Virus record (IMG/VR): IMGVR_UViG_3300042870_001427
Location: 100,147 to 164,146 of that record
DNA from: a virus
Lineage: Duplodnaviria; Heunggongvirae; Uroviricota; Caudoviricetes
Strand: one strand, 5' to 3'
DNA: 64,000 nucleotides
The position numbers and the translations under genes are program-made. Below are positions 27,169 to 63,973 of the stretch, piece by piece. The notes beneath the pieces are model-generated. The model worked only from the letters and a program-made list of their open reading frames with translations, did no database searches and was not told the origin of the DNA. The first letter of the stretch is position 1. Each line of letters opens with the position of its first letter.

Positions 27169-28533
27169 ATGTTAACTGAAGAAATTCAAAGAAAATGGGC
27201 TCCAGTATTAGAGCACGAAGATCTTGTAGCAATTAAAGATCCTCACAAGCGTGCTGTTACTGCTCAAATCTTAGAGAATACCGAAAGAGCTCTTCGCGAA
27301 AGCGGCGGCTACGGCGGTCAGTCTCTATTAGAAGCCAATCAGCCTGCTAACGCTATTCAAGCCCAAGGCGGTTCAAGCAATATCGATACATTCGATCCTG
27401 TTTTAATCAGCTTGGTTCGTCGTGCAATGCCTAACCTAATGGCCTATGATGTTTGCGGTGTACAGCCAATGACAGGTCCTACAGGTTTGATCTTTGCAAT
27501 GCGTGCACGTTACAGCAACAACTCTGGAACCGAAACATTCTACGGTGAAGTCAACACTGCATTCTCCTCAGTCCTATCTGGTGCTAACACCTTTGGTCTG
27601 AAGAACGCAGGAAACATTCCAGGTAACACCTCTGTTACTCTTGGTGCTGACATGGTCTCCAACGGCCTGTACAACACCGGTACTGGTATGTCTACAGCTT
27701 CTGCTGAGAACCTTGGTTCTAACGCATCTCTGGTATTCCCAGAAATGGCCTTCTCTATCGAGAAAGTAACTGTTACTGCTAAGTCACGTGCTCTGAAAGC
27801 TGAATACTCAATGGAACTAGCGCAAGACTTGCGTGCTGTTCACGGTCTGGATGCTGAGACAGAATTGTCAAATATTCTTTCTTCTGAAATCCTAGCCGAA
27901 ATCAATCGTGAAGTTATCCGTACAATCAATATCACCTCTACCCGCGGTGCTACTGAGAACGTAACAACTTCTGGTGTTTTCGATCTTGACACCGACTCTA
28001 ACGGTCGTTGGTCAGTTGAGAAGTTCAAAGGCCTGATGTTCCAAGTCGAGCGTGAAGCAAATCAAATTGCTAAAGCAACTCGTCGTGGTAAAGGTAACAT
28101 CATCATCTGTTCATCTGACGTAGCTTCTGCTCTTCAAATGGCTGGTGTTCTTGATTACGCTCCAGCCCTGAACAGCAACAACCTGAACGTTGATGACACA
28201 GGTAACACTTTCGCTGGTGTTCTAAACGGTCGTATTCGTGTTTACATCGATCCATATGCTGGTGGTCAAAACAGTGCCTCTGGTCAATATCTGACCGTAG
28301 GTTACAAAGGCTCTAGCGCATTCGATGCTGGTCTATTCTATTGCCCATATGTTCCTCTACAAATGGTTCGTGCAGTTGATCAAGACACATTCCAACCAAA
28401 GATTGGCTTCAAGACCCGTTACGGAATGGTTGCAAACCCATTCAGTGATGGTGCTACAGCAGCCGGTACTGGTGCATTGACCGCTGACTCCAACGTGTAC
28501 TACAGACGTGTTATCGTTGCTAACTTAATGTAA
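27169..28533 (+). CDS. gp23: Major capsid protein gp23-like.
   Basis: VCGVQPMTGPTGLIFAMRA, SRALKAEYSMELAQDLRAVHGLDAETELSNILSSEILAEINREV, FAGVLNGRIRVYIDPYA, TVGYKGSSAFDAGLFYCPYVPL and GFKTRYG correspond to blocks of T4 gp23. Confidence 0.92.
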   Translation: MLTEEIQRKWAPVLEHEDLVAIKDPHKRAVTAQILENTERALRESGGYGGQSLLEANQPANAIQAQGGSSNIDTFDPVLISLVRRAMPNLMAYDVCGVQPMTGPTGLIFAMRARYSNNSGTETFYGEVNTAFSSVLSGANTFGLKNAGNIPGNTSVTLGADMVSNGLYNTGTGMSTASAENLGSNASLVFPEMAFSIEKVTVTAKSRALKAEYSMELAQDLRAVHGLDAETELSNILSSEILAEINREVIRTINITSTRGATENVTTSGVFDLDTDSNGRWSVEKFKGLMFQVEREANQIAKATRRGKGNIIICSSDVASALQMAGVLDYAPALNSNNLNVDDTGNTFAGVLNGRIRVYIDPYAGGQNSASGQYLTVGYKGSSAFDAGLFYCPYVPLQMVRAVDQDTFQPKIGFKTRYGMVANPFSDGATAAGTGALTADSNVYYRRVIVANLM

Positions 28534-50887: not shown

Positions 50888-51193
50888 ATGTTTAAGCGTA
50901 TGAAGGATGAGTATCTGCCTACCGGGCTTTGGTTTGAATTGCCTACTGTGACCAATGCTATGGTCAGGGCCAAGTTCGGTACCGGGATGGTTAGTCAAGA
51001 CCGGGAGAAGTACAGTGATAGCATTCAGATCAAATCCGATATGACCGGGGTGAAGTACTCACTCTACAAATGCTATGGGGTTTGGCGGGTTGGCCGTGTT
51101 GCCGGTACCGGTAATGCCACCCAGGAGGCCTTTGATCGTGCTGAAATCCATAAGTTGTTTGGGGTTGAAGAAGTAACCAGTAATAGTTACTGA
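50888..51193 (+). CDS. Hypothetical early protein (101 aa).
   Basis: Sits downstream of the promoter cassette and shared leader. Confidence 0.45.
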   Translation: MFKRMKDEYLPTGLWFELPTVTNAMVRAKFGTGMVSQDREKYSDSIQIKSDMTGVKYSLYKCYGVWRVGRVAGTGNATQEAFDRAEIHKLFGVEEVTSNSY

Positions 51194-51220
51194 AATATCG
51201 GTTGACTTAATTACGGAATA
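51192..51220 (+). promoter_or_regulatory. Early promoter cassette (TTGACT-N17-TATAAT).
   Basis: gTTGACTtaattacggaatattacTATAATtggtaCATCAACAGGAGAAAAC. Confidence 0.6.
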
Positions 51221-51229
51221 TTACTATAA

Positions 51230-52141
51230 TTGGTACATCAACAGGAGAAAACAAAGATGCATCAGCTCAAACAAGTCAACGGTTACTATGTTGGTTACAT
51301 CAACGGGGAAGAAGTAGTGAAGTCTAAGTCTAAGTACTACGCCGAGAGAAAGCTTTATAACACCTCGGCTCCGGCTTTCAAGGCACCGGAGACTGTTGTC
51401 GAATCTGCAGTCGAATTCCCCATTAACCAACGCTTTGGCTTTGTTACCGATCTGGTCTCTATGGTGGCCAATGGTGCGACTCCTTCCTGCATCGTATCCG
51501 GTGAAGGCGGCCTGGGCAAGACCTTTACCGTGATCCAGGCACTCGAGGCCGCCGGTCTTCGCAACATCACCGAAGTCCCTGTTGGTGAGGTGGTGCCTCC
51601 GAAGTCTACCTACCGGGTGGTTAAGGGCTACAGTACTCCTAAGGGTCTCTATCGCATCTTGGCCGAAAACGCCAATTCAATCATCGTGTTTGACGATTGT
51701 GATAGCGTACTGAAGGATGACAATGCCCTGAACATCCTGAAGGGTGCTTTGGATACCTTTGATAAACGCATCATCTCCTGGAACTCTTCTAAAGACGAGG
51801 ACGATGTGCCCCGTTGGTTCCAGTTCAAGGGTGGCATCATCTTCATCTCCAACATGCCTCTCCATAAGATGGAACAGGCCGTTCGTTCACGCGCCATGTG
51901 TGTTGATCTCTCTATGACCCTGTCCCAGAAGATCGAACGTATGGCCGTTATCATGAATGATGATGGGTTTATGCCTGAGGTTGCCATGTCGGTGAAGAAG
52001 GCGGCCTTGGCCTTGGTTGATGAACTGAAGGAGAAATCCAAAGAAGTTAGCCTTCGTACGCTGATCAAGACGGCAAAGATTGCCAACTCCAAGTCTGCCA
52101 ATTGGAAGTCCTTGGCCGAATACATGCTGATTCAGGGCTAA
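51230..52141 (+). CDS. P-loop ATPase (Walker A + B), function unknown.
   Basis: Walker A motif VSGEGGLGKTFTV and Walker B motif SIIVFDDCDS are present. Size is 303 aa. Confidence 0.5.
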   Translation: MVHQQEKTKMHQLKQVNGYYVGYINGEEVVKSKSKYYAERKLYNTSAPAFKAPETVVESAVEFPINQRFGFVTDLVSMVANGATPSCIVSGEGGLGKTFTVIQALEAAGLRNITEVPVGEVVPPKSTYRVVKGYSTPKGLYRILAENANSIIVFDDCDSVLKDDNALNILKGALDTFDKRIISWNSSKDEDDVPRWFQFKGGIIFISNMPLHKMEQAVRSRAMCVDLSMTLSQKIERMAVIMNDDGFMPEVAMSVKKAALALVDELKEKSKEVSLRTLIKTAKIANSKSANWKSLAEYMLIQG

Positions 52142-52158: not shown

Positions 52159-52176
52159 GTAACTAGGAATAGTTAC
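52159..52176 (+). promoter_or_regulatory. Conserved palindrome GTAACTA-N4-TAGTTAC upstream of an early promoter; terminator-like stem-loop or operator.
   Basis: GTAACTAggaaTAGTTAC followed by TTTTTTT, then the -35 box. Copies recur at 52801, 53642, 56039 and 63927. Confidence 0.45.
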
Positions 52177-52186
52177 TTTTTTTCAG

Positions 52187-52215
52187 TTGACTTTATTACG
52201 GAATATGTCTATAAT
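52187..52215 (+). promoter_or_regulatory. Early promoter cassette (TTGACT-N17-TATAAT).
   Basis: agTTGACTttattacggaatatgtcTATAATaagaCATCAACAGGAGAAAAC. Confidence 0.6.
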
Positions 52216-52583: not shown

Positions 52584-52805
52584 ATGAATGACGTATCTGC
52601 TTGTGTGTTCAGTGATATGCGATACACGTTGATTGAGATGGGGGAGCGGGCTGCTGATGACATCTCTGCTGACGTCTTCCATGTGATGGCCGATAGCCTC
52701 CTCTACCCCCCTGCAACCAATGGGGAATGGGGTGGGTGGACGGCCAAGGATATCGCCGATTTCGAACGCTATAATGACCAATCCAGTGAGTTCGATCCTA
52801 CGTAA
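52584..52805 (+). CDS. Hypothetical acidic protein (73 aa).
   Basis: Coupled ORF with GGAGAA upstream. Confidence 0.4.
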   Translation: MNDVSACVFSDMRYTLIEMGERAADDISADVFHVMADSLLYPPATNGEWGGWTAKDIADFERYNDQSSEFDPT

Positions 52806-52849
52806 CTATAACTAGTTACATTTTGCATCGTAAAACGTGCAAAATAACG

Positions 52850-52878
52850 GTTGACTTTATTACGTAGCTGGACTATAA
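52850..52878 (+). promoter_or_regulatory. Early promoter cassette.
   Basis: gTTGACTttattacgtagctggacTATAATtggaCATCAACAGGAGAAAAC. It is preceded by the palindrome GTAACTAtaacTAGTTAC at 52801-52818. Confidence 0.6.
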
Positions 52879-52903
52879 TTGGACATCAACAGGAGAAAAC
52901 GAT

Positions 52904-53633: not shown

Positions 53634-53670
53634 TGCAAAACGTAACTAGTATTAGTTACTAAAATAACAG

Positions 53671-53699
53671 TTGACTTTATTACGGATATTGACTATAAT
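53671..53699 (+). promoter_or_regulatory. Early promoter cassette, preceded by the palindrome at 53642-53659.
   Basis: agTTGACTttattacggatattgacTATAATtacgtATG. The -10 box lies only 5 nt before ATG 53705. Confidence 0.55.
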
Positions 53700-53728: not shown

Positions 53729-54124
53729 ATGAACTACTTCTTCAACGACGTTAAGGTGACTGAGGCTGAGTATCACAAGTTGATCGAAGACGCCGAATCC
53801 CATCACCAGTTGTTGGCTGATGCCAAGGCCAAGCAAGTGGCCGCAGACAAGGAACTGGCCAAGGCAAAACCCAAGGCTAAGTCCCGTAAGGTGGCTAAGA
53901 TGCCTGCCCCGGTGGATCTCAACAAAGTGACCATCAAGGGCATGGCCGATAAGGTGGAGGCTCCTAAGAAAGGCTCCAAAACCGCCGTAGCTGCCGAATG
54001 CATGGTGAAGGTTGGTGTGGAGAACAAGGTCGGATGTGTTGAGGCTATCATGGTGGCCTTGGGTGTTACTAAGGGTAACGCAACCTGCTACTACTTCAAC
54101 GTGATGAAAAAAGGGTTGATTTAA
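53729..54124 (+). CDS. Basic hypothetical protein. The track start 53705 is probably too early; an internal Met at 53729 has a ribosome-binding site.
   Basis: AAAGGAACAGACC-ATG at 53729. The upstream ATG at 53705 sits inside the promoter's transcription-start zone. Confidence 0.4.
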   Translation: MNYFFNDVKVTEAEYHKLIEDAESHHQLLADAKAKQVAADKELAKAKPKAKSRKVAKMPAPVDLNKVTIKGMADKVEAPKKGSKTAVAAECMVKVGVENKVGCVEAIMVALGVTKGNATCYYFNVMKKGLI

Positions 54125-54145
54125 ATAGTAGGATTGGCCTATAAT
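54116..54145 (+). promoter_or_regulatory. Sigma70-like promoter (TTGATT-N18-TATAAT) driving a noncoding region.
   Basis: ggTTGATTtaaatagtaggattggccTATAATaagg. No ribosome-binding site or ORF follows. Confidence 0.5.
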
Positions 54146-54149
54146 AAGG

Positions 54150-54735
54150 CATAGGGTGAGGGGATCGGATCCCCAAGCCGCCAGTTGAAAAATTACTGGC
54201 AACTATAACCCCTGATTCCACGCAGGTTAAGGCGTGGAAGTCCTATCCCAAGGATCACCTAGGCTAGAACCTAGGGCCGATGAGCATCGCAAGCCCTACC
54301 ACGGGTGCCGATGGACGATGAATTTGGGAAGCAGTAGTTAGCAGTGGGAGGTGTAGGCCTAACCAAGTATAGAGATTTTAAGGAGAGGCGCTGCGAGGCG
54401 CGGGCTGCGAAGCTACTCTTAAACGACCTGTAGAACACTCAGGCGTCCTTAATCTGATCCTGTTACCATTTCTCGTTAAAATGGCGTTTGATTAGCGATA
54501 GAGATCCGGTGGCAGAAAACCGTTAGCGAGAGAAATACTCAGACTCTGATAGGCAGAATCCTAACTGCACACAGAATAAAATGGATGGACAGGGTAACCA
54601 CTCAAGTAGGGGCGAACATGGAAAAACGTAGCCTACAACTAACTTTTCGCCATAGGATGTAATGGAGTGCGGTTTGCTTCAACCTCTGGTACCGGGGGTT
54701 ATCTTGCGTGGGTTCGAATCCCACATGGCGAGCCA
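54150..54735 (+). ncRNA. GC-richer structured noncoding RNA region ending in a tRNA-like module.
   Basis: No ORF over ~590 nt. Multiple GC hairpins are present (GGGGATCgGATCCCC, GGCGCTGCGAGGCGCGGGCTGCGAAGC). It is downstream of the promoter and ends with the tRNA-like element. Confidence 0.45.
54647..54735 (+). tRNA. tRNA-like element: 7-bp acceptor helix, canonical T-arm, discriminator and encoded CCA. The D-arm is non-canonical, so a genuine tRNA is unproven.
   Basis: 5' strand TCGCCAT … T-arm GTGGG-TTCGAAT-CCCAC … 3' strand ATGGCGA-G-CCA. A possible anticodon-like hairpin is cCTC-tggtacc-GGGg. Confidence 0.4.
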
Positions 54736-54751
54736 ATACATAGGGATAGAC

Positions 54752-54907
54752 ATGCAGTACATCATTGAATGGATTCTCCGCCTTCTGGGCTGGTGTCTGA
54801 CGGCTGTGGCCCTGTTTGGCATGTCCATCCTCCTCATCGTGCTCGCCGGTATGACGTACGGTGGATACGTGGAATTCATGAAGTACATAAAAATAGTTAC
54901 TTCTTGA
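54752..54907 (+). CDS. Small hydrophobic peptide (~51 aa).
   Basis: MQYIIEWILRLLGWCLTAVALFGMSILLIVLAGM… sits 3' of the tRNA-like element. Its ribosome-binding site (AGGGA) is weak. Confidence 0.25.
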   Translation: MQYIIEWILRLLGWCLTAVALFGMSILLIVLAGMTYGGYVEFMKYIKIVTS

Positions 54908-54910
54908 CCA

Positions 54911-54939
54911 GTTGACTTTATTACGGGTATAGCCTATAA
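54911..54939 (+). promoter_or_regulatory. Early promoter cassette.
   Basis: agTTGACTttattacgggtatagccTATAATaaggCATCAACAGGAGAAAAg. Confidence 0.6.
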
Positions 54940-54965
54940 TAAGGCATCAACAGGAGAAAAGATAG

Positions 54966-56038: not shown

Positions 56039-56056
56039 GTAACTAGAAATAGTTAC
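56039..56056 (+). promoter_or_regulatory. Palindrome GTAACTA-N4-TAGTTAC followed by a T-run, then a promoter.
   Basis: GTAACTAgaaaTAGTTACTTTTT. Confidence 0.45.
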
Positions 56057-56066
56057 TTTTTAGGAG

Positions 56067-56095
56067 TTGCTTTAATTACGAAAACGGACTATAAT
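56067..56095 (+). promoter_or_regulatory. Early promoter (TTGCTT-N17-TATAAT).
   Basis: agTTGCTTtaattacgaaaacggacTATAATaacg. Confidence 0.5.
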
Positions 56096-56123
56096 AACGT
56101 ATGTTCAGTAAGAAAGGTAGTAT

Positions 56124-56480
56124 ATGAAACTCGTCATCGAAACCCAGTATATGGAGAACTACGGTGCCCATGATTGGGATGGTGAAAGCTTTGGCCCTTG
56201 TCCCCAGTACTGGAAGATGAAGGGTGGGTACTCCTACGTGGCCGAGAATATTGAGCATTCCATTAAAGGTGGGGAGTTCTTTGAGAAGAGATGTCAGATG
56301 ATCGTCGATAGTGTTCGTGATAAGATAGAACATGATACCTTCTATTCGCGTGAGTATATCATCGGATGGTCGGTGCAACCGGATGACTGGATGTCCGAGT
56401 TTGAGAAGTCCCAGTTAGAGTACGAAGGCTCTATTACCCATAAAGAACCACGCATTGATCTAGAAGGCAACCGTCTATGA
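56124..56480 (+). CDS. Hypothetical protein (118 aa).
   Basis: AAAGGTAG ribosome-binding site upstream. Confidence 0.45.
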   Translation: MKLVIETQYMENYGAHDWDGESFGPCPQYWKMKGGYSYVAENIEHSIKGGEFFEKRCQMIVDSVRDKIEHDTFYSREYIIGWSVQPDDWMSEFEKSQLEYEGSITHKEPRIDLEGNRL

Positions 56481-56653
56481 AAATCATCTATGTGGTCAAC
56501 ATTAACGTGGCAGAAGACTCCCTGGGTCTTACTTGGGAACCCGTGAGAGCCTATACAACACGGTTGGCGGCTGCAAAGCACATAGAATGGTGCTGGCAGG
56601 AATACGGTCATGAGCTTGAATACTGCATTGAGGAATTGGAATTGTATGAATGA
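56477..56653 (+). CDS. Small hypothetical protein (58 aa).
   Basis: Coupled at CTATGA; its end overlaps array member A1 (TATGAATGA). Confidence 0.3.
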   Translation: MKIIYVVNINVAEDSLGLTWEPVRAYTTRLAAAKHIEWCWQEYGHELEYCIEELELYE

Positions 56654-56846
56654 CCGAATTAAAGAACTTGCTGAACAATGTCGTGGTAATCCAATGACTT
56701 CTGAGTTTGAACCTTTGTTTGATAAAGCAAAGTTCGCCGAGTTGATTGTAAGAGAATGTGCCGAAATTGCATTGACGGAAGCACAATCAAATGGTAATTT
56801 TGACACATTCAATAAAATTGTAAAACATTTCGGAATTAAAGCATAA
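56646..56846 (+). CDS. Paralogue array member A1 (MNDRIKELAEQ…KFAELIVREC…KHFGIKA).
   Basis: Family signature with N-terminal MNERIKEL, central KFAELIV-EC and C-terminal HFGV. Confidence 0.55.
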   Translation: MNDRIKELAEQCRGNPMTSEFEPLFDKAKFAELIVRECAEIALTEAQSNGNFDTFNKIVKHFGIKA

Positions 56847-56856
56847 GGAGTTAGAA

Positions 56857-57219
56857 ATGAGTTTGTATAATATGGTGTTTGGTGAGAATGGTTCACAAAA
56901 AGAATTCTTGTTTAGTTTGCTAGACAAAGGTCAACAAGATTTTGGTCGTTATCGTGACATTTATGTTACTGATACTCACATTGTTGTCCATACCCGTAAT
57001 GGTGGCGGCAACCGTGAAGACTATCAGGATGTATTTGATGAGATGTTTCATCACCCATTGTATGATTATGATGAGGATGATGATTTTGATTGCACCTATG
57101 CCAATATTTACTTTAAACACCCAGAGGGTTATTCTGAGGTTTTGAAAGAGATGGCAGAAGGTACTATCACGCCTAGTGAGAAGTGGCAGATGCTATTTGC
57201 CGCATTGGAGAAGAAATGA
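56857..57219 (+). CDS. Cargo gene: acidic hypothetical protein (120 aa).
   Basis: AAGGAG ribosome-binding site upstream. Its stop overlaps the ATG of A2. Confidence 0.45.
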   Translation: MSLYNMVFGENGSQKEFLFSLLDKGQQDFGRYRDIYVTDTHIVVHTRNGGGNREDYQDVFDEMFHHPLYDYDEDDDFDCTYANIYFKHPEGYSEVLKEMAEGTITPSEKWQMLFAALEKK

Positions 57220-57473
57220 ACGAACGATTTAAACAACTTGCTAAACAATGCTATGAAACTGGACCGCTGGGTAAAGATGGGTGGCCAGAATATACAAAAT
57301 TTAATGAAGTGAAGTTCGCCGAGTTGATTGTTCAAGAATGTGCTAAAATTGCTAGGGCCACTCCTTGTCCTTATGAAGAAGATGAAGTAAGACAACGACT
57401 TGGCCATACCTGGGATATGGCTTGTATTGAATCTGGGCGTGAAATTGTAAAGCATTTCGGAGTTGGAAAATGA
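57216..57473 (+). CDS. Array member A2 (MNERFKQLAKQC…KFAELIVQEC…KHFGVGK).
   Basis: Family signature. Confidence 0.55.
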   Translation: MNERFKQLAKQCYETGPLGKDGWPEYTKFNEVKFAELIVQECAKIARATPCPYEEDEVRQRLGHTWDMACIESGREIVKHFGVGK

Positions 57474-57730
57474 AGTGTGATAAATGCGGAGTTTCCGATA
57501 ACGGCACCGGTGACTGGGCTCATGTGTGCGGACCGGTGAAGGTTAAGGAATACGATGTTGTCATAGATGTGTTACAAAAGCATCGTGAGAAACTGTGGAT
57601 GATGACAAACCTGAACATGAATGCCGATTCGTTCAATATGATGGATCAGATTCGCCTAGAACAAATTGACCAGTTGGATAAAGCAATCATAATGTGGTTG
57701 AACAGCATTTCGGAGTTGAAGAATGAATGA
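57470..57730 (+). CDS. Cargo gene: Cys-rich zinc-ribbon-like protein (86 aa). Its 3' end reads the family junction sequence in a different frame.
   Basis: CDKCGVSDNGTGDWAHVCGP. Its terminal nucleotides CATTTCGGAGTTGAAGAATGAATGA translate as NSISELKNE. Confidence 0.45.
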   Translation: MKCDKCGVSDNGTGDWAHVCGPVKVKEYDVVIDVLQKHREKLWMMTNLNMNADSFNMMDQIRLEQIDQLDKAIIMWLNSISELKNE

Positions 57731-57929
57731 TCGAATCAAAGAACTTTTTGAACAGGTCAAGGCAGAATCTAACCAATGGCTTGGTAGTAAACCTGGTATT
57801 GCCATAACTTATGATGAACTTGGAAAACTCGCCGAGTTGATTGTCAAGGAGTGTATTGACAGAGCCGAACGATATGGTCTTGGATCTGATGCTGTTGAAC
57901 AAATGAAGGAAGATTTCGGAGTTGAATGA
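57723..57929 (+). CDS. Array member A3 (MNDRIKELFEQ…LAELIVKEC…EDFGVE).
   Basis: Family signature. Confidence 0.55.
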   Translation: MNDRIKELFEQVKAESNQWLGSKPGIAITYDELGKLAELIVKECIDRAERYGLGSDAVEQMKEDFGVE

Positions 57930-58114
57930 TGAACACAGAAGATGACTACTATGATGGTGATATGAGTGATGCAGAATATCGCCAGAGAATTAAGCGAGAG
58001 GAAGAATCTGAACGATATTATGCCCATCAGCGAGAGTTATACAAACAAAAACAATCATCTAATAAGGTCTACTATTCACCTTCTGAGAATGAAGATAGTG
58101 GGAGTATGTGGTGA
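57926..58114 (+). CDS. Cargo gene: acidic/Tyr-rich small protein (62 aa).
   Basis: ATGATGA coupling. Confidence 0.35.
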   Translation: MMNTEDDYYDGDMSDAEYRQRIKREEESERYYAHQRELYKQKQSSNKVYYSPSENEDSGSMW

Positions 58115-58371
58115 ACGAACGAATTAAAGAACTTGCTGAACAGGCTACATCAATTGTAGAAATGGTAGGACCCGAAGGTTATACCAGCAGTTATGCCAAC
58201 TTTGATAGGGAAAAGTTCGCCGAGTTGATTGTGAAGGAATGTTTAGCACATGGTAAGTTGACTCAATCACAGGCAGTGGTGAACGGATCAGAAGAATATA
58301 ATGCTGGCAGAGAGATGGGCATTGAAGTTTTTATGAATCAGATTAAACTACATTTTGGAGTTGAAGAATGA
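58108..58371 (+). CDS. Array member A4 (VNERIKELAEQ…KFAELIVKEC…LHFGVEE); GTG start.
   Basis: Family signature. Confidence 0.5.
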   Translation: MVNERIKELAEQATSIVEMVGPEGYTSSYANFDREKFAELIVKECLAHGKLTQSQAVVNGSEEYNAGREMGIEVFMNQIKLHFGVEE

Positions 58372-58574
58372 ACGAACGAATTGAAAAACTTGCTGAACAA
58401 TGCTATCATCGGTACAGTGTGCACTACATTGATTTAGAAAAGTTCGCCGAGTTGATTGTGAAAGAATGTGCCAAGTCTTTGTGGACCGAAGAATGCCATA
58501 ACAGTGACCTGGCATTAGAAGAATTTGAAAGAAACAGTGCTAAGATTAAAGAACATTTCGGAGTTGATGAATGA
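58368..58574 (+). CDS. Array member A5 (MNERIEKLAEQC…KFAELIVKEC…EHFGVDE).
   Basis: Family signature. Confidence 0.55.
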   Translation: MNERIEKLAEQCYHRYSVHYIDLEKFAELIVKECAKSLWTEECHNSDLALEEFERNSAKIKEHFGVDE

Positions 58575-58759
58575 ACGAACAAGATAAACTATGGATTGAT
58601 AATGCATCCTATGAGGATCTGCTACGTAAATGGCGGTACGCTCCTTTGGGGGACCATATGCTCCAGGGCGAAACTGGTGAGTATTTTAGTAAGGTCATGT
58701 TTGCAAAGAAGAAGAATTGTGACCATGTTCAGGCATCAAAGAATGTAGGTTGGGAATGA
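58571..58759 (+). CDS. Cargo gene sharing only the junction codons (MNEQ… …VGWE).
   Basis: Its body is unrelated, flanked by GAATGAACGAAC and GGGAATGAACAAACGA junctions. Confidence 0.4.
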   Translation: MNEQDKLWIDNASYEDLLRKWRYAPLGDHMLQGETGEYFSKVMFAKKKNCDHVQASKNVGWE

Positions 58760-58965
58760 ACAAACGACTAGAACAACTTGCTGAACTAGCTACTGATATA
58801 GTAGAAACGGTAAACCCACAAGGCTATACCAGCAGCTATGCAAAATTTGACCGTGAAATGTTTGCCCTGTTGATTATTCGGGAATGTGCTGACTTCTTGA
58901 AAGATACAATGGATGATCATTTTGCAGCAGAGCAGTTATTGGAACTTTTCGGAGTTGATGAATGA
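58756..58965 (+). CDS. Array member A6 (MNKRLEQLAELA…MFALLIIREC…ELFGVDE).
   Basis: Family signature. Confidence 0.5.
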   Translation: MNKRLEQLAELATDIVETVNPQGYTSSYAKFDREMFALLIIRECADFLKDTMDDHFAAEQLLELFGVDE

Positions 58966-59138
58966 ATAAAATGATTTTAGCTTTTGCTGTTGTATTTTTG
59001 CTATTCTTTTACGGTATCAAAGCCGTTAGAGAATTGACCGGAAAAGAAATGTTAGGTTTGGTAAAGCTCTTGACTTACAGTGCAGGTTGTGCTATAATTA
59101 CCATTGTTAGTTTAGTCTCCCTTGTGATACTTTTTTAA
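58962..59138 (+). CDS. Cargo gene: small 2-TM membrane peptide (58 aa) with an embedded promoter.
   Basis: MNKMILAFAVVFLLFFYG… The motif TTGACT-N18-TATAAT at 59070-59099 lies inside the ORF. Confidence 0.35.
   Translation: MNKMILAFAVVFLLFFYGIKAVRELTGKEMLGLVKLLTYSAGCAIITIVSLVSLVILF
59070..59099 (+). promoter_or_regulatory. Sigma70-like promoter upstream of the SPFH lipoprotein gene.
   Basis: cTTGACTtacagtgcaggttgtgcTATAATtacc. Confidence 0.45.
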
Positions 59139-59144
59139 GGATGT

Positions 59145-59942
59145 ATGATGAAAAAATTTGCTCTTACTGGTTTGGTTGTTGCTTCAATTCTCGCCTCGGG
59201 TTGTACCCGTATCGAAACGGGTGAAGTAGGTGTCCGTGTTGGCTTTGACAAACAGGTCCAGCAAGGTGAACTTTTGCCAGGTTCCTTCAATCAGGTACTG
59301 ATCGGTGATGTTCTTACATTCCCTATCAAGGACGTTAATGTCAAACTAGATGACATGACCCCGGTGGCTAAAGATAACAGCACCATGAAAGACTTTGATG
59401 CCGTGGTCATCTATAACATTAATCAGGCCCAGGTTGCCGAACTATACAGCCAAAAGAGCCAGGCATTCCATGCCCGCCATAACGGCGACATCTACTTGAT
59501 GTATAACTACATGGTTCAAACCACCCGTAATGCCATCTACAAAGAAGCCCGTAAGTACGAGGCGCTAGACATGGCCGATAGTCGTCAAGCTATGGAACAG
59601 GCCATCAAAGAACAAATTCAAAAGAGTTTGGCCGACGAAAAGCTTGACGGTAGTCTAATGGTTGGTCAAGTGTTGATTCGTAACATTGTGCCTGCAGACT
59701 CTGTGGTTGCTAGTGCAAACGAATTGGTTCGTGCCAAGAATGAATTGAAACAAAAAGAAGTTGAAGTAAAGACTGCTAAGATGGAGGCTGAACGTATGCA
59801 GGCTTTGAGCAACCAAGGTGCCCAGAGCATTGCTTACATGCAGGCCCAGGCTATGATGAATATCTCAGAAGGTATCAAGAACGGTCGTGTGCAAACGATT
59901 GTTGTGCCTGCAAACTTCAATGCGCTGATGCTGCAAAAATGA
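59145..59942 (+). CDS. SPFH/band-7 (stomatin-prohibitin-HflK/C-like) lipoprotein.
   Basis: Signal peptide with lipobox LASGC. The SPFH core GEVGVRVGF… is followed by an Ala/Glu-rich coiled-coil tail. AAGGA ribosome-binding site upstream. Confidence 0.6.
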   Translation: MMKKFALTGLVVASILASGCTRIETGEVGVRVGFDKQVQQGELLPGSFNQVLIGDVLTFPIKDVNVKLDDMTPVAKDNSTMKDFDAVVIYNINQAQVAELYSQKSQAFHARHNGDIYLMYNYMVQTTRNAIYKEARKYEALDMADSRQAMEQAIKEQIQKSLADEKLDGSLMVGQVLIRNIVPADSVVASANELVRAKNELKQKEVEVKTAKMEAERMQALSNQGAQSIAYMQAQAMMNISEGIKNGRVQTIVVPANFNALMLQK

Positions 59943-60166
59943 ACGAACGAATTAAAGAACTTTGGTCGCAGGCTGGAGGTCACTATGATAGCGGCAATCA
60001 GCACACTTGGCCACAATATACAATTGACGATCCAGAAAGGTTCGCCGAGTTGATTGTTCGAGAATGTTTAGACATTGTAAATAGGAAAGAGTATAGTTAT
60101 CATGAGACCGACCCACTTTGGGAAACAGCACAATTGATTAAAGAACATTTCGGAGTTGAAGAATGA
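59939..60166 (+). CDS. Array member A7 (MNERIKELWSQ…RFAELIVREC…EHFGVEE).
   Basis: Family signature. Confidence 0.55.
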   Translation: MNERIKELWSQAGGHYDSGNQHTWPQYTIDDPERFAELIVRECLDIVNRKEYSYHETDPLWETAQLIKEHFGVEE

Positions 60167-60333
60167 ACATACTGATTAGGATTCTACATACTATACCGTT
60201 TGTACATTTCTATGATAAATGGTCTGATACCGGAACTTGTTCTGGTTATGATGGTGAAGAACGCCAGCAAAGATTCTGTATTATCTGCAATAAGAAACAA
60301 TACCGTACCATAACCAATAGTCCCATAATCTGA
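60163..60333 (+). CDS. Cargo gene: small Cys-containing protein (56 aa).
   Basis: Flanked by junction sequences; below the track cut-off. Confidence 0.3.
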   Translation: MNILIRILHTIPFVHFYDKWSDTGTCSGYDGEERQQRFCIICNKKQYRTITNSPII

Positions 60334-60336
60334 CAA

Positions 60337-60594
60337 ATGAACGAACGAATTAAACAACTTGCTATCGAAGCCAGGCTACTAACTGGGTGGCCAGTAGGTG
60401 AAGTCGAGTATCAAAAGTTCGCCGAGTTGATTGTGCAGGAATGTATTGGCATTTTAGAGGCAGAGATTGAATTAGAAAAAGGATATAAATCTACTGCCTG
60501 TAATGACTTTGATGTCCGCTGGCATCAAGGTAAGATCGAACACTTTGCCAAACTGGTAGAAAAGAGTAAGAAACATTTCGGAGTTGAAGAATGA
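60337..60594 (+). CDS. Array member A8 (MNERIKQLAIEA…KFAELIVQEC…KHFGVEE).
   Basis: Family signature. Confidence 0.55.
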   Translation: MNERIKQLAIEARLLTGWPVGEVEYQKFAELIVQECIGILEAEIELEKGYKSTACNDFDVRWHQGKIEHFAKLVEKSKKHFGVEE

Positions 60595-60779
60595 ACGAAC
60601 GAATTCAGGAACTTTGGGAACAAGCTGTTCGGGGTGATGGACCCCATGCATCAGTGATTGCAGATTTCGCTGAGTTGATTGTTCAGGAATGTATTGACAT
60701 TGCCCGCGATGAAGAAGGCCATTCGCCTTTCGAGGGTCCTGTAGAAACTAAGATTAAACAACATTTCGGAGTTAAATGA
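60591..60779 (+). CDS. Array member A9 (MNERIQELWEQ…FAELIVQEC…QHFGVK).
   Basis: Family signature. Confidence 0.55.
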   Translation: MNERIQELWEQAVRGDGPHASVIADFAELIVQECIDIARDEEGHSPFEGPVETKIKQHFGVK

Positions 60780-60979
60780 TGATTAAAGTTGGAGCCACAA
60801 CCTTTGTACTGCTGATTGCCCTAGCCCTTCTTGCCCCCTTTGCATACCTGTGGGCTTTGAATACTCTGTTCCCAGTACTAGAACTTGAGTACAGCTTTGT
60901 TAACTATATCGCCATCTGTCTGGTACATGCATTCCTACGTGCTGATATAGGTATAAGAAAAAATGAACGAACAGATTAA
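60776..60979 (+). CDS. Cargo gene: 2-TM membrane protein (67 aa).
   Basis: TM segments TTFVLLIALALLAPFAYLWAL and YIAICLVHAFL are present. Confidence 0.4.
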   Translation: MMIKVGATTFVLLIALALLAPFAYLWALNTLFPVLELEYSFVNYIAICLVHAFLRADIGIRKNERTD

Positions 60980-61184
60980 ACTATTCGCCGAACAAGCCGG
61001 CTTTATGATGTGGGAAGATGAACCGTGGAATCCCGGGGACGTAGTTGACTGGAGTGCACGCTATGATACTGAACTGGAAAAGTTTGCTAACATGATTATA
61101 TTCGAATGTTTCAAGCTGGCAGTATTCAATGGTAATCACGTAACAGCAAAAGCAATCAAAGAACATTTTGGAGTTGGAGAATGA
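60963..61184 (+). CDS. Array member A10 (MNEQIKLFAEQ…KFANMIIFEC…EHFGVGE).
   Basis: Family signature (diverged). Confidence 0.5.
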   Translation: MNEQIKLFAEQAGFMMWEDEPWNPGDVVDWSARYDTELEKFANMIIFECFKLAVFNGNHVTAKAIKEHFGVGE

Positions 61185-61549
61185 AAGTAGTGATCAACGG
61201 TGACTTCGGGGGCTTTAGCCTTTCGGATGAGGCATTTGAAAAGTTTTTACATCGTAAGGGCATTGCCTGGGAGAAGAGTATCAACAAATATGATATGATG
61301 GATTACTACCATGCCCGCCACCTCGATAGTGATGAACATTATTTGGCCCAGCATGAAGTTTTGCATAACCGGGCCGATCCCGATCTGGTGGCAGTGGTGG
61401 AGGAGATGGGCCATAAAGCCAATGGTCAGTATGCCAATCTGGTGATTGTGGAGATACCTGACGACGTTCAATGGCACCTGGCCGAATACGATGGCGTTGA
61501 ACATATTGCCGAAAACCACAGAACCTGGGGGCCAGGATATGAGCCTTGA
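61181..61549 (+). CDS. Hypothetical protein (122 aa).
   Basis: Coupled to A10 (GAATGAAAG). Confidence 0.45.
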   Translation: MKVVINGDFGGFSLSDEAFEKFLHRKGIAWEKSINKYDMMDYYHARHLDSDEHYLAQHEVLHNRADPDLVAVVEEMGHKANGQYANLVIVEIPDDVQWHLAEYDGVEHIAENHRTWGPGYEP

Positions 61550-61880
61550 TGTTGATTTAATGGTGACCCAGCCTACCTCTGTATACAGTGGTAACATTAC
61601 CCATAACCTTGGTTTTATGGCTAAGGAAGTCGTTCTCAGAAACGGTCTGACTTTATACCAGGTTCTTTGGCGTCCGGATGAGTGTAATTTGCTGTTTGCA
61701 AGAAATATCTCCAAATTGTTGGATGAGGGGTGGAATATTCTTTTATCTGATCCAGAACGTTTTCAGAAATTTGATCCTCCCAATGGATGGGGCTCATATG
61801 AAGGACTATGTGACTTTGTTTATAAGTACAGGAATGCGTGTTGGGATAATCCTGATGCTGAACTTAGAATATCTAGATAG
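61539..61880 (+). CDS. Hypothetical protein (~113 aa).
   Basis: Starts at the internal Met of track ORF 61446..61880 (ATGAGCCTTGA), overlapping the previous stop. Confidence 0.4.
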   Translation: MSLDVDLMVTQPTSVYSGNITHNLGFMAKEVVLRNGLTLYQVLWRPDECNLLFARNISKLLDEGWNILLSDPERFQKFDPPNGWGSYEGLCDFVYKYRNACWDNPDAELRISR

Positions 61881-62105: not shown

Positions 62106-62307
62106 TGATTGCCATTACTATTATAATGAAGAAGATGGTAGGATCATTGGTCAAGTAAACAAGATAGCGTTTACTAAAGTGTTTATTGCAAAAATTATTA
62201 GAAATCATAATGATGAGGCGTTTCTTGGGCAATTCATATCTTGTGCGTTTGCCCAATCCGCAGTTCAACTTTTTTGGGATGCCCAAGATAGGACGTTTAT
62301 AGAATGA
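62077..62307 (+). CDS. Hypothetical small protein (76 aa).
   Basis: GGAGGGAG ribosome-binding site upstream. Confidence 0.4.
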   Translation: MKRNWKDSADDCHYYYNEEDGRIIGQVNKIAFTKVFIAKIIRNHNDEAFLGQFISCAFAQSAVQLFWDAQDRTFIE

Positions 62308-62726
62308 GAGCAGAACTAGATAGGGAGCTTTGTGAAAAGTATCCTAAGATGATGGTCAACCGTCATAAAGATATGAAGGAGACCACCATGTGCTGGGGCT
62401 TTGAAGTTGGTGATGGATGGTATAACATCATTAGAAATCTTATGAGCCAGATCCAACATCATATTGATTGGAAAAACCGAGACAGTGAAGTTGTTCAGCA
62501 AGTCACACTTGACCAGGTCAAAGAAAAATTTGGTACCCTTCGTTTCTATTATACCGGGGGCGATGACCGTATTCGTGGCATGGTGACTATGGCAGAGGCT
62601 ATGTCCGCCGTTACCTGTGAGGTGTGCGGGAATGCAGGTAAGTTCCGAGGCCGGAACTGGTATTATACCTCTTGTGAGGAACATGCCAGGGAAGAAGATA
62701 AACTCCCAGTGGAAAATATGTCTTGA
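62304..62726 (+). CDS. Hypothetical Cys-containing protein (140 aa).
   Basis: Coupled ORF containing CEVCGN…CEEH. Confidence 0.45.
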   Translation: MRAELDRELCEKYPKMMVNRHKDMKETTMCWGFEVGDGWYNIIRNLMSQIQHHIDWKNRDSEVVQQVTLDQVKEKFGTLRFYYTGGDDRIRGMVTMAEAMSAVTCEVCGNAGKFRGRNWYYTSCEEHAREEDKLPVENMS

Positions 62727-62776: not shown

Positions 62777-63196
62777 ATGACAATGCCAGCCGGTAAGTAT
62801 TATGTGGGTGATTTGTGCTATGTGATGCATGAATGTTGGGATGAGGTATGTGGCCTGTTCTTCAAAGGTCGTACCGACCATGGTTGTAACGAAGGTGAGT
62901 TCGTACTCAAGGACGGCCGCCGGTTTGTATCCATTAATACGAAATACGGTGACGGTAGTTATCACGATCAATATGGTAACGAGTACGGTGTTGATGCCGG
63001 TCTCATTGGCTGTATCCTTATCAACGACATTAACTTCAACTCCGATGGTAACGGTACCGAAGGTGGTAATGTAGTTAACTTTGAGCACCCGTTCGATTGC
63101 GGTGGTGGCCGAAATAAAGGTCGTGACTGGGATGGTAATATCCATATAGGTCATCTGGTTATTGAAACCGACCCTGTCTGCGAGTACGACGAATGA
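62777..63196 (+). CDS. Hypothetical Gly/Asp/Cys-rich protein (139 aa).
   Basis: TAGGAG ribosome-binding site upstream. Confidence 0.45.
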   Translation: MTMPAGKYYVGDLCYVMHECWDEVCGLFFKGRTDHGCNEGEFVLKDGRRFVSINTKYGDGSYHDQYGNEYGVDAGLIGCILINDINFNSDGNGTEGGNVVNFEHPFDCGGGRNKGRDWDGNIHIGHLVIETDPVCEYDE

Positions 63197-63926: not shown

Positions 63927-63973
63927 GTAACTAGTAATAGTTACTTGACTTATTTACGGATATAGACTATAAT
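63927..63973 (+). promoter_or_regulatory. Palindrome GTAACTAgtaaTAGTTAC abutting an early promoter TTGACT-N17-TATAAT.
   Basis: GTAACTAgtaaTAGTTAC-TTGACTtatttacggatatagacTATAAT. Confidence 0.55.

Follow-up and report, generated by a model that had tools for sequence, protein, structure and literature searches.

In the tail-fibre adhesin gp38 of T-even phages, glycine-rich motifs (GRMs) form the core and hypervariable segments lie between them; exchanges within or near the conserved motifs give rise to chimeras from a pool that is common to phages (Trojet et al. 2011, PMC3157838). For T4-like phages, promoter-early stem-loops (PeSLs) have been described together with modular shuffling in hyperplastic regions, and the internal protein (IP) locus of T-even phages encodes polymorphic small proteins, some of which counter host defences (Comeau et al. 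2014, PMC4122927). Polymorphic toxin systems (Zhang et al. 2012, PMC3482391) contain a conserved part that recombines with arrays of alternative cassettes, which diversifies the variable part. Here we analysed an array of small genes located at positions 56646-61184, + strand, of a 64-kb stretch of DNA (the window) from the virus record IMGVR_UViG_3300042870_001427. Ten of these genes belong to one family, and unrelated cargo genes are located between them. We consider it likely that this is a recombination-shuffled family, in which a framework of conserved nucleotide blocks is retained while two variable segments (V1 and V2) and cargo genes are exchanged among phages, with a 3' block that would couple translation to the next gene and a position in a region that is probably expressed early.

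Ten family members and their conserved nucleotide blocks

The phage from which the window derives is T4-like; the open reading frame (ORF) 27169-28533 encodes a gp23-type major capsid protein with 71% identity to the counterpart of Stenotrophomonas phage DLP_6. Nearly all ORFs of at least 150 amino acids (aa) in the window are located on the + strand. Within the array, ten + strand ORFs of 62-87 aa align as one family:

56646-56846, + strand: member 1, 66 aa; ends with TAA, GGAG 10 nucleotides (nt) before the next start
57216-57473, + strand: member 2, 85 aa, by family alignment
57723-57929, + strand: member 3, 68 aa, by family alignment
58111-58371, + strand: member 4, 86 aa with a GTG start; alternatively 87 aa from the GTG at 58108
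58368-58574, + strand: member 5, 68 aa; its start is a direct family-to-family junction with member 4
58756-58965, + strand: member 6, 69 aa
59939-60166, + strand: member 7, 75 aa
60337-60594, + strand: member 8, 85 aa
60591-60779, + strand: member 9, 62 aa; its start is a direct family-to-family junction with member 8
60963-61184, + strand: member 10, 73 aa; the most divergent copy

An initial annotation of the locus had proposed ten paralogous small genes with three common motifs, and both the family alignment and the motif counts bear this out. The motifs are MNERIKELAEQ at the N-terminus, (E)KFAELIVxEC in the centre and HFGVEE at the C-terminus. In pairwise comparison the other window members are 33-51% identical to member 1, and the residues N2, A, I, E, C, F and G are invariant across all ten. 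For comparison, every ORF of 80 IMG/VR loci and 3 ENA loci was searched with a hidden Markov model of the window members. This search of the 83 loci and the window yielded 271 family genes from 84 sources, 261 of them outside the window. The comparison loci are contigs from uncultured phages and are named L001, L004, L014, L024, L029, L083, L104 and so on. With a median length of 71 aa and a median isoelectric point (pI) of 4.9, the 271 members are acidic.

At the nucleotide level the members share three blocks, a 5' block ATGAACGAACGAATTAAAGAACTT, a central block TTCGCCGAGTTGATTGT..GAATGT and a 3' block CATTTCGGAGTTGAAGAATGA. The 5' block ATGAACGAACGAATTAAAGAACTT was found eight times in the window (0 expected), the central block TTCGCCGAGTTGATTGT eight times plus one chance hit (0.16 expected) and the 3' block, in the form TTCGGAGTTGAAGAATGA, ten times (0.02 expected), in each case on the + strand only. 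At residues that are identical between window members, the same codon was used at a rate of 0.77-0.84 in the blocks and of 0.56 in the variable parts, compared with 0.41-0.45 expected from the codon usage of the phage. The concern raised in the initial annotation, that the junctions might be no more alike than codon-level conservation predicts, does not hold up against these values.

Rare codons are among those fixed in the blocks, namely CGA, GGA, TTG and GCC (in the window 6% for Arg CGA, 16% for Gly GGA and 16% for Leu TTG). Among the members outside the window, with the codon usage of the respective loci as background, Arg CGA was fixed in 174 of 215 cases (background 13%). The corresponding values were 156/233 for Leu CTT (19%), 195/241 for Ala GCC (19%), 187/216 for Glu GAG (29%), 215/250 for Leu TTG (25%), 216/234 for Gly GGA (20%) and 186/208 for Val GTT (37%). 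Codon fixation also holds in the 139 members that had not been used for retrieving the loci. The blocks are conserved beyond the protein level.

For the three blocks, identity was 0.68, 0.76 and 0.82 within a locus and the same between loci. Signs of local gene conversion are therefore absent, and concerted evolution within a genome, which was considered as a candidate process, is unsupported. The copies in one genome look as if they had been drawn from a common pool and not like local duplicates. The tandem array of paralogues described in the initial annotation is therefore not one that arose by local duplication, since copies from one genome resemble each other no more than copies from different genomes.

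Exchange of variable segments and modules between phages

Each member was divided into an N block, V1, the central block, V2 and a C block. V1 comprises 9-33 aa and V2 10-41 aa, and the differences between members are wholesale replacements. V1 identity and V2 identity are nearly uncorrelated (r=0.13): 63 pairs of members have at least 60% identity in V1 with less than 25% in V2, 34 pairs show the reverse and 29 are alike in both segments. The 211 non-redundant members comprise 161 V1 types and 176 V2 types in 208 combinations. Considering recurrent types, which are present in at least two members, 27 of the 29 V1 types were paired with at least two V2 types, and 25 of the 28 V2 types with at least two V1 types. 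Over 15-29 residues, some shared segments show 100% identity although the adjoining segments are unrelated, so that convergence is excluded. In the window, members 4 and 6 have a common V1 type combined with different V2 segments, and V1 of member 2 is 84% identical to V1 of members in L001 and L014, with an unrelated V2.

Structure models were calculated with AlphaFold2 and a 130-sequence alignment. The model of member 5 (predicted local distance difference test, pLDDT, 90) consists of helices 3-16, 23-36 and 47-64 with a short turn at 42-45. In the model of member 4 (pLDDT 92.5), helix 3-11 is followed by a beta-hairpin (13-31) and two further helices, 33-52 and 61-82. The structure prediction proposed in the initial annotation thus yielded confident three-helix models for both members. 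In both of them the constant blocks are predicted to form the three core helices, V1, as a loop or a beta-hairpin, would be inserted between helices 1 and 2, and V2 would be located at the tip of the hairpin of helix 2 and helix 3.

DNA matches between loci were collected as high-scoring segment pairs (HSPs) with at least 88% identity over at least 60 nt. In this set 29 HSPs cover the stretch between 5' and central block, 21 the stretch between central and 3' block, and 112 the junction alone; none corresponds to exactly one whole gene. Endpoints were located inside the three blocks in 224 of 237 cases, a count that is partly expected because BLAST matches run through conserved blocks by construction; the informative part is that similarity stops before the next variable segment or the neighbouring gene. 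The 5'-to-central half of member 1 is 97% identical to L004 over 104 nt and unrelated beyond the central block, and the central-to-3' half of member 5 is 94% identical to L083 over 139 nt, with an unrelated V1. Besides short matches to the conserved junction, L004 and L083 resemble the window only in these half-genes, which therefore have moved between otherwise dissimilar genomes.

The clearest individual example is L104, a contig that comes from a different sample. It is 99.7% identical to window positions 58210-59414, but the two sequences are unrelated on the upstream side of member 4's central block. There L104 carries a different V1 and a different upstream gene, and the switch is located in the central block of member 4 at 58213-58240. 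Judged by its sequence, L104 appears to be a natural recombinant. The central block, for which the initial annotation had given the protein motif only, is the most informative crossover point. The other short contigs retrieved for comparison with the window are 100% identical fragments of the same phage, and the arrangement of the window is reproduced at 100% identity in six contigs from independent samples.

A comparison of gene content was possible with L024 and L029, which are syntenic with the window: the cargo SPFH lipoprotein is 95% identical, a 122-aa gene 63% and a 114-aa gene 81%. For the family members around these genes, identity to any window member does not exceed 46%. L024/L029 have two members, versus four in the window, in the interval from the SPFH gene to the 122-aa gene, and the L024 member at 7984-8292 lies between genes that are adjacent in the window. 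The initial annotation had proposed to compare the cassette content of related phages, and these relatives do differ in number and position of the members, with the SPFH gene conserved. DNA that is 85% identical to L024/L029 corresponds to window positions 58962-59962 and is bounded by the 3' block of member 6 and the 5' block of member 7; a membrane-peptide gene and the SPFH gene form one module between family ends (85% identity at the nucleotide level, 95% for the SPFH protein). Relatives of the genes 56124-56480, 61181-61549, 61536-61880 and 62304-62726 recur beside the L024/L029 arrays and represent the slower-evolving backbone. Compared with this flanking backbone, the array changes much faster in gene content.

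Similarity between genomes begins and ends at the blocks, and half-genes as well as modules located between members are exchanged. The idea of recombination-driven cassettes stands in so far as conserved sequences mark the exchange boundaries; it has to be modified with respect to the exchanged unit, in most cases half a gene. As the arrays have no linked dedicated recombinase, we infer that the exchange would occur by general homologous recombination of the phages on 20-60 nt of shared sequence during co-infection.

Several points weigh against a recombination-shuffled family, in addition to the partly expected position of the HSP endpoints. All comparative data are metagenome assemblies, and recombination was deduced from assembled contigs. 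Assemblers can mis-join at shared segments, so that an artefact is possible; this worry is mitigated by the exact match at the L104 switch, which is only 23 nt long, and assembly artefacts would themselves need shared segments that are present in different contexts. The synonymous conservation of the blocks could reflect selection on RNA or translation, and the data leave cause and effect unseparated. Structure searches returned only generic helical bundles or uncharacterised proteins of the same family from uncultured phages. Early expression, coupling and a host-directed function are all deduced from the sequence.

Junctions, cargo genes and transcription signals

The 3' block reads CAT TTC GGA GTT GAA GAA TGA and contains GGAG, 7 nt and ATGA. 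Nine of the ten family stops in the window overlap the next start as ATGA, the remaining case being member 1 with TAA and a 10-nt gap; across loci, an ATGA end is present in 188 of 266 family genes. All window genes located behind a family member, whether member or cargo, have GGAG at -11 (or -8), a spacing that agrees with the other genes of the phage (mostly 5-8 nt). The C-terminus of the family therefore seems to double as ribosome-binding site and coupling signal of the next gene. With GGAG 7 nt before the ATGA overlap, any gene behind a family member would be translationally coupled, which would make the family a ready docking site for cargo, and one small gene would act as a universal adaptor that provides a ribosome-binding site and a stop/start overlap for any gene behind it. 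Such a coupling role would also explain part of the nucleotide conservation of the 3' block and the persistence of orphan copies.

The view of the initial annotation that the termini serve as translational-coupling signals is in line with this arrangement, since GGAG, 7 nt and ATGA are supplied to every downstream gene. Its further statement that every stop overlaps the next start by a near-invariant junction applies to the ATGA overlap in nine of ten cases, but the full junction is rare. A complete junction of about 50 nt, consisting of 3' and 5' block, is present at only two family-to-family sites (58371/58368 and 60594/60591) and once more at a cargo-to-family site (57706-57746). In the same way, cargo is embedded between family ends as proposed, but a complete junction at the site of insertion is exceptional. 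Folding of the junction RNA gave z-scores of -0.97, -0.75 and +0.35, which are not significant, and an Rfam search of the junction and the array gave no match.

The members that follow cargo and start at 59939, 60337, 60963 and 58756 have no sequence resembling a Shine-Dalgarno (SD) motif in the 20 nt upstream. Because members behind cargo often lack an SD, our guess is that the conserved 5' block may itself allow initiation or re-initiation without an SD.

Eight unrelated small genes are located between the family members in the window:

56857-57219, + strand: 120-aa acidic protein, without family match
57470-57730, + strand: zinc-ribbon-like gene, 86 aa; the final ~30 nt correspond to a family 3' end in another frame
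57926-58114, + strand: 62-aa acidic protein
58571-58759, + strand: 62-aa gene whose opening 10 nt equal those of the family 5' block (ATGAACGAAC; protein MNEQ..)
58962-59138, + strand: 58-aa membrane peptide
59145-59942, + strand: SPFH/Band_7 lipoprotein, 265 aa (PF01145, E 5.6e-17; phrog_200)
60163-60333, + strand: 56-aa gene
60776-60979, + strand: 67-aa membrane peptide; 17-nt overlap with the start of member 10

According to the ORF list and the profile matches, the cargo had been named correctly from the beginning (a zinc-ribbon protein, membrane peptides, an SPFH lipoprotein and acidic proteins). Translated in the family frame, the end of the zinc-ribbon-like gene reads ..VVEQHFGVEE*, and an orphan 3' block with 0 mismatches is located at 57709-57726 inside this gene. 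Across the loci, 15 of 167 3' blocks are orphans on non-family genes, as are 2 of 179 central blocks and 2 of 161 5' blocks. The orphan 3' blocks retain GGAGTTGAAGAATGA, and the bases upstream of it vary. Cargo that starts with a family-like MNE(R/Q/K) was found in 13 of 1,655 cases, with a weak enrichment behind family genes (p=0.07); because such cargo is rare, N-terminal chimeras of cargo are exceptions. Zinc-ribbon genes are not enriched beside family members (6/22, p=0.26). No linked partner gene was detected within 6 kb on either side of the arrays, the commonest neighbour being present in 13 of 76 loci.

Two further observations concern neighbouring sequences. At 77-424 of L104, a family member (MNKRIGQLAEQ..) is preceded by an in-frame, zinc-ribbon-like N-terminal extension of 34 codons (MKQITCPHCGDTYPDFDVAHVC..); this could represent either a true fusion or two genes that lack a stop between them. 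The flanking genes 61181-61549 and 62777-63196 of the window belong to phrog_16527 and phrog_20074, PHROG families without an assigned function.

The array is located in a region of small genes interspersed with strong sigma70-type sites (TTGACT-17-TATAAT), most of which follow a stem-loop. Upstream and downstream of the array the window contains PeSL-like composites, in which a stem-loop GTAACTAGnAATAGTTAC is followed by TTGACT(TT)ATTACGG..TATAAT and in most copies by CATCAACAGGAGAAAAC before the start codon:

51173-51230, 52159-52215, 52802-52880 and 53642-53699: PeSL-like elements, each a stem-loop with a promoter-like site
54883-54940: copy of the repeated composite element
56039-56100, + strand: PeSL-like element upstream of the array, stem-loop GTAACTAGAAATAGTTAC followed by TTGCTT-17-TATAAT
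63927-63973, + strand: PeSL-like element downstream of the region, stem-loop followed by TTGACT-17-TATAAT

Two of these elements flank the array and all of them lie outside the family genes. The element at 56039-56100 is likely the early promoter of the first transcription unit. Promoter-like sites without a hairpin are present at 59070 and 62723. The former (59070-59098, TTGACT-17-TATAAT with a TG extension) lies inside the gene of the 58-aa membrane peptide, just upstream of the SPFH gene, and may divide the array into two transcription units. The T4 late-promoter motif TATAAATA is absent from the array; the six copies in the window are all located at 3380-27121, in the structural region. 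Because early-type promoters flank the array and no late promoter lies inside it, early transcription of the array appears likely from these promoter-like sites.

Downstream of a promoter-like site at 54116-54145 there is an ORF-free stretch (54146-54740, + strand) with a high GC content (0.47); its end resembles the T-arm, acceptor and CCA of a tRNA (GGGTTCGAATCCCACATGGCGAGCCA). A weak match to transfer-messenger RNA (tmRNA) at 54580-54725 was obtained with Rfam in E-value mode (16.9 bits versus a gathering threshold of 47; E 1.3e-4). ARAGORN found nothing in this stretch with default settings and a tRNA-Gly at ~54647-54735 with relaxed settings. The stretch may encode a tmRNA-like or tRNA-like non-coding RNA of the phage.

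Distribution, alternative explanations and relation to known systems

A profile of the ten members matched at least 7,993 metagenome proteins, none of which has a Pfam domain, and at least 8,561 representatives of 50%-identity clusters at E<=1e-3, all of them 65-160 aa long. Member 4 is identical to the database protein P0002. Four homologues of 116-158 aa (P0121, P0126, P0131 and P0173) match the profile in two stretches and look like read-through fusions of two adjacent members. Arrays are common, with 13 copies in L049, eight each in L018, L023 and L065, and a maximum of 13 per 12 kb. Across the 84 sources, 24% of the family genes are directly followed by another member, so that interspersed arrays are the norm.

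No member scored above the cut-off in Pfam-A, where the best matches were DUF6798 for member 10 (19.9 bits, cut-off 26.9) and Fungal_TACC for member 5 (15.4 bits, cut-off 27), and profile searches of the members against PHROGs v4 and NCBIfam 20 gave no match. The best match in a PDB sequence search had an E-value of 0.12 and comprised designed repeat proteins. Near-identity and protein searches of 50,697 GenBank phage records revealed no cultured phage with the family; the sole marginal matches were two 'Caudoviricetes sp.' metagenome records from Manatee Spring. A scan of bacterial genomes found contigs in freshwater metagenome-assembled genomes only and no isolate genome, and thus gave no host assignment. 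A text search of the literature for the family motifs found no paper. The initial annotation was not aware of a description of the system, and the lack of a match among the curated models and in the searched literature agrees with this. The family is a very large set of ~70-aa acidic proteins of uncultured, mostly freshwater T4-like and larger phages. It is abundant in freshwater viromes yet invisible to Pfam, PHROGs and NCBIfam, so that annotation pipelines label all members 'hypothetical'. New here are a large multi-copy family of small proteins whose framework codons are conserved across phages, with intragenic and intergenic crossover points, and a family 3' end that appears to be a portable translational-coupling signal.

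Ordinary tandem duplication would mean that copies diverged in place and kept a structural core, with a nucleotide likeness due to codon bias or recency. The copies are clustered, co-oriented and of a common fold, and members 4 and 6 have the same V1 type. However, the fixed codons are rare ones (CGA 6%, GGA 16%, TTG 16%), block identity is no higher within a locus than between loci, the window members are as far apart from each other (33-51%) as from metagenome homologues, V1 and V2 assort independently, and a syntenic relative has different members at different positions. We regard this explanation as largely refuted and improbable. Sharp boundaries and members at new positions in relatives (L024 7984-8292) could also result from dedicated mobile cassettes of an integron- or homing-like type, whose ends are sites for a site-specific recombinase or a homing endonuclease, and a T5orf172/GIY-YIG-type gene is located ~9 kb from the L001 member. 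Such cassettes are highly improbable in our opinion: no gene accompanies the family in more than 13 of 76 loci (6 kb on either side), inverted repeats or attC-like hairpins are missing and the junction does not fold, the motifs are located on one strand only and in frame with the protein, and exchange also takes place at an internal block, which is unexpected for end-recognising enzymes.

Selection at the level of the mRNA might keep the blocks alike, the 3' block as SD and spacer, the 5' block for SD-independent initiation, or perhaps as an operator for a translational repressor or a nuclease, with recombination as a passive by-product. This would fit the supply of GGAG, 7 nt and ATGA to every downstream gene, the members after cargo that often lack their own SD (member 7 after the SPFH gene, member 8 after the 56-aa gene and member 10 after the 67-aa gene), the orphan 3' blocks that keep GGAGTTGAAGAATGA with varying bases upstream, and the unstructured junctions, as expected for initiation regions. 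It does not fit the central block, which is equally conserved (GCC GAG TTG ATT) and has no start codon, no SD function and no significant RNA structure, and the codons of the 5' block (AAC not AAT, CGA not AGA) are not simply AT-rich. As an account of the whole locus we consider it quite unlikely. It explains the likeness of the blocks and not the exchange pattern, and therefore overlaps with and complements recombination shuffling but does not replace it. Another explanation treats the members as injected cargo similar to IPI-III of T4, with MNERIKELAE as a capsid-targeting sequence (CTS) that ends with an L/I-x-E site for the prohead protease. The likeness to the CTS of T4, MKTYQEFIAE, is superficial. 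L/I-x-E is present at positions 5-7 or 8-10 in 195 of 271 members, but neither site is conserved (140/271 at 5-7 and 109/271 at 8-10), and Glu occurs at position 10 in 113/271 and at position 7 in 148/271. The IPs of T4 are basic, whereas the family is acidic (median pI 4.9); the array lacks the late promoter TATAAATA, and the N-terminal block is predicted to be a core helix and not a detachable tag. Although the T-even IP locus is known to be polymorphic (PMC4122927), we rejected the capsid-targeting idea as extremely improbable because the cleavage motif is unconserved and charge and promoter type differ.

Within the framework of a recombination-shuffled family, the proteins might, as a speculation, form a repertoire of binders with a host-directed or anti-defence role, in which the scaffold stays constant and two recognition segments can be exchanged. 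The properties that point circumstantially to anti-defence are a small, acidic and by prediction helical protein, a likely early promoter context and fast turnover. In a more extended form, the codons of a constant three-helix scaffold would be kept alike for combinatorial shuffling of V1/V2 and for capture of cargo throughout a community of co-infecting phages, and the early proteins would each neutralise or redirect a different host target, for instance a defence system. We regard this extended form as unlikely, though not far-fetched; if true, it would represent a germline-style diversification of phage counter-defence without a dedicated enzyme. The repertoire seen comprises at least 161 x 176 V1/V2 types in a small sample. 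Should the members prove to be binders of host targets or to counter defence, the arrays would offer a rich supply of such factors, diversified by nature, and a constant scaffold with two exchangeable inserts, if true, would be of interest to protein engineers.

According to the 'linker' idea, short conserved sequences at module boundaries direct phage mosaicism. Clean examples are few, and the family provides an unusually clear and statistically tractable case with thousands of variants, three crossover blocks and an intragenic breakpoint. With regard to integron cassettes, which carry attC hairpins and have an integrase linked to them, we found no significant junction structure and no recurrent neighbouring gene in 76 loci. 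The target of a diversity-generating retroelement, in which a repeat of fixed length acquires substitutions at adenines from a second repeat and a reverse transcriptase nearby, was also rejected as a candidate: V1 and V2 vary in length, are replaced wholesale and are found again as identical segments in other genomes. A recurrent neighbouring gene is likewise missing from these 76 loci, although no search aimed specifically at a reverse transcriptase was made.

The polymorphic toxins differ from the family in that they are bacterial, large, secreted and accompanied by immunity genes, and there is no homology. With the IPs of T-even phages the family has in common a conserved N-terminal sequence and variable bodies; it differs by the absence of a conserved capsid-targeting or protease site, by charge and promoter type, and by additional central and C-terminal blocks. 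The likeness to PeSLs, for which Arbiol et al. 2010 reportedly described modular shuffling, is one of function only. In both cases repeated sequences between variable genes are exchange points and supply expression signals to inserts, the signals of the family being predicted ones, and similarity between loci begins and ends in the family blocks. PeSLs are non-coding composites of terminator and promoter, whereas the family junction is coding and has neither promoter hexamers nor a hairpin; its blocks would provide signals for translation and not for transcription, and they include an intragenic crossover point.

The GRM and hypervariable-segment design of gp38 is said to be described in Tetart et al. 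1998 as well. No gp38 or adhesin model was among the profile matches (Pfam, PHROGs, NCBIfam), and there is no relationship in sequence or fold. The blocks of the family are predicted to be helical and are not glycine-rich, and the locus lies among small genes whose promoters are of the early type and not in a tail-fibre module. In contrast to a virion adhesin, the members are ~70-aa acidic, probably helical proteins present in multiple copies (arrays of up to 13), and their 3' block appears to contain the ribosome-binding site of the next gene. As in gp38, conserved motifs alternate with hypervariable segments, and the exchanges are located in the conserved motifs.

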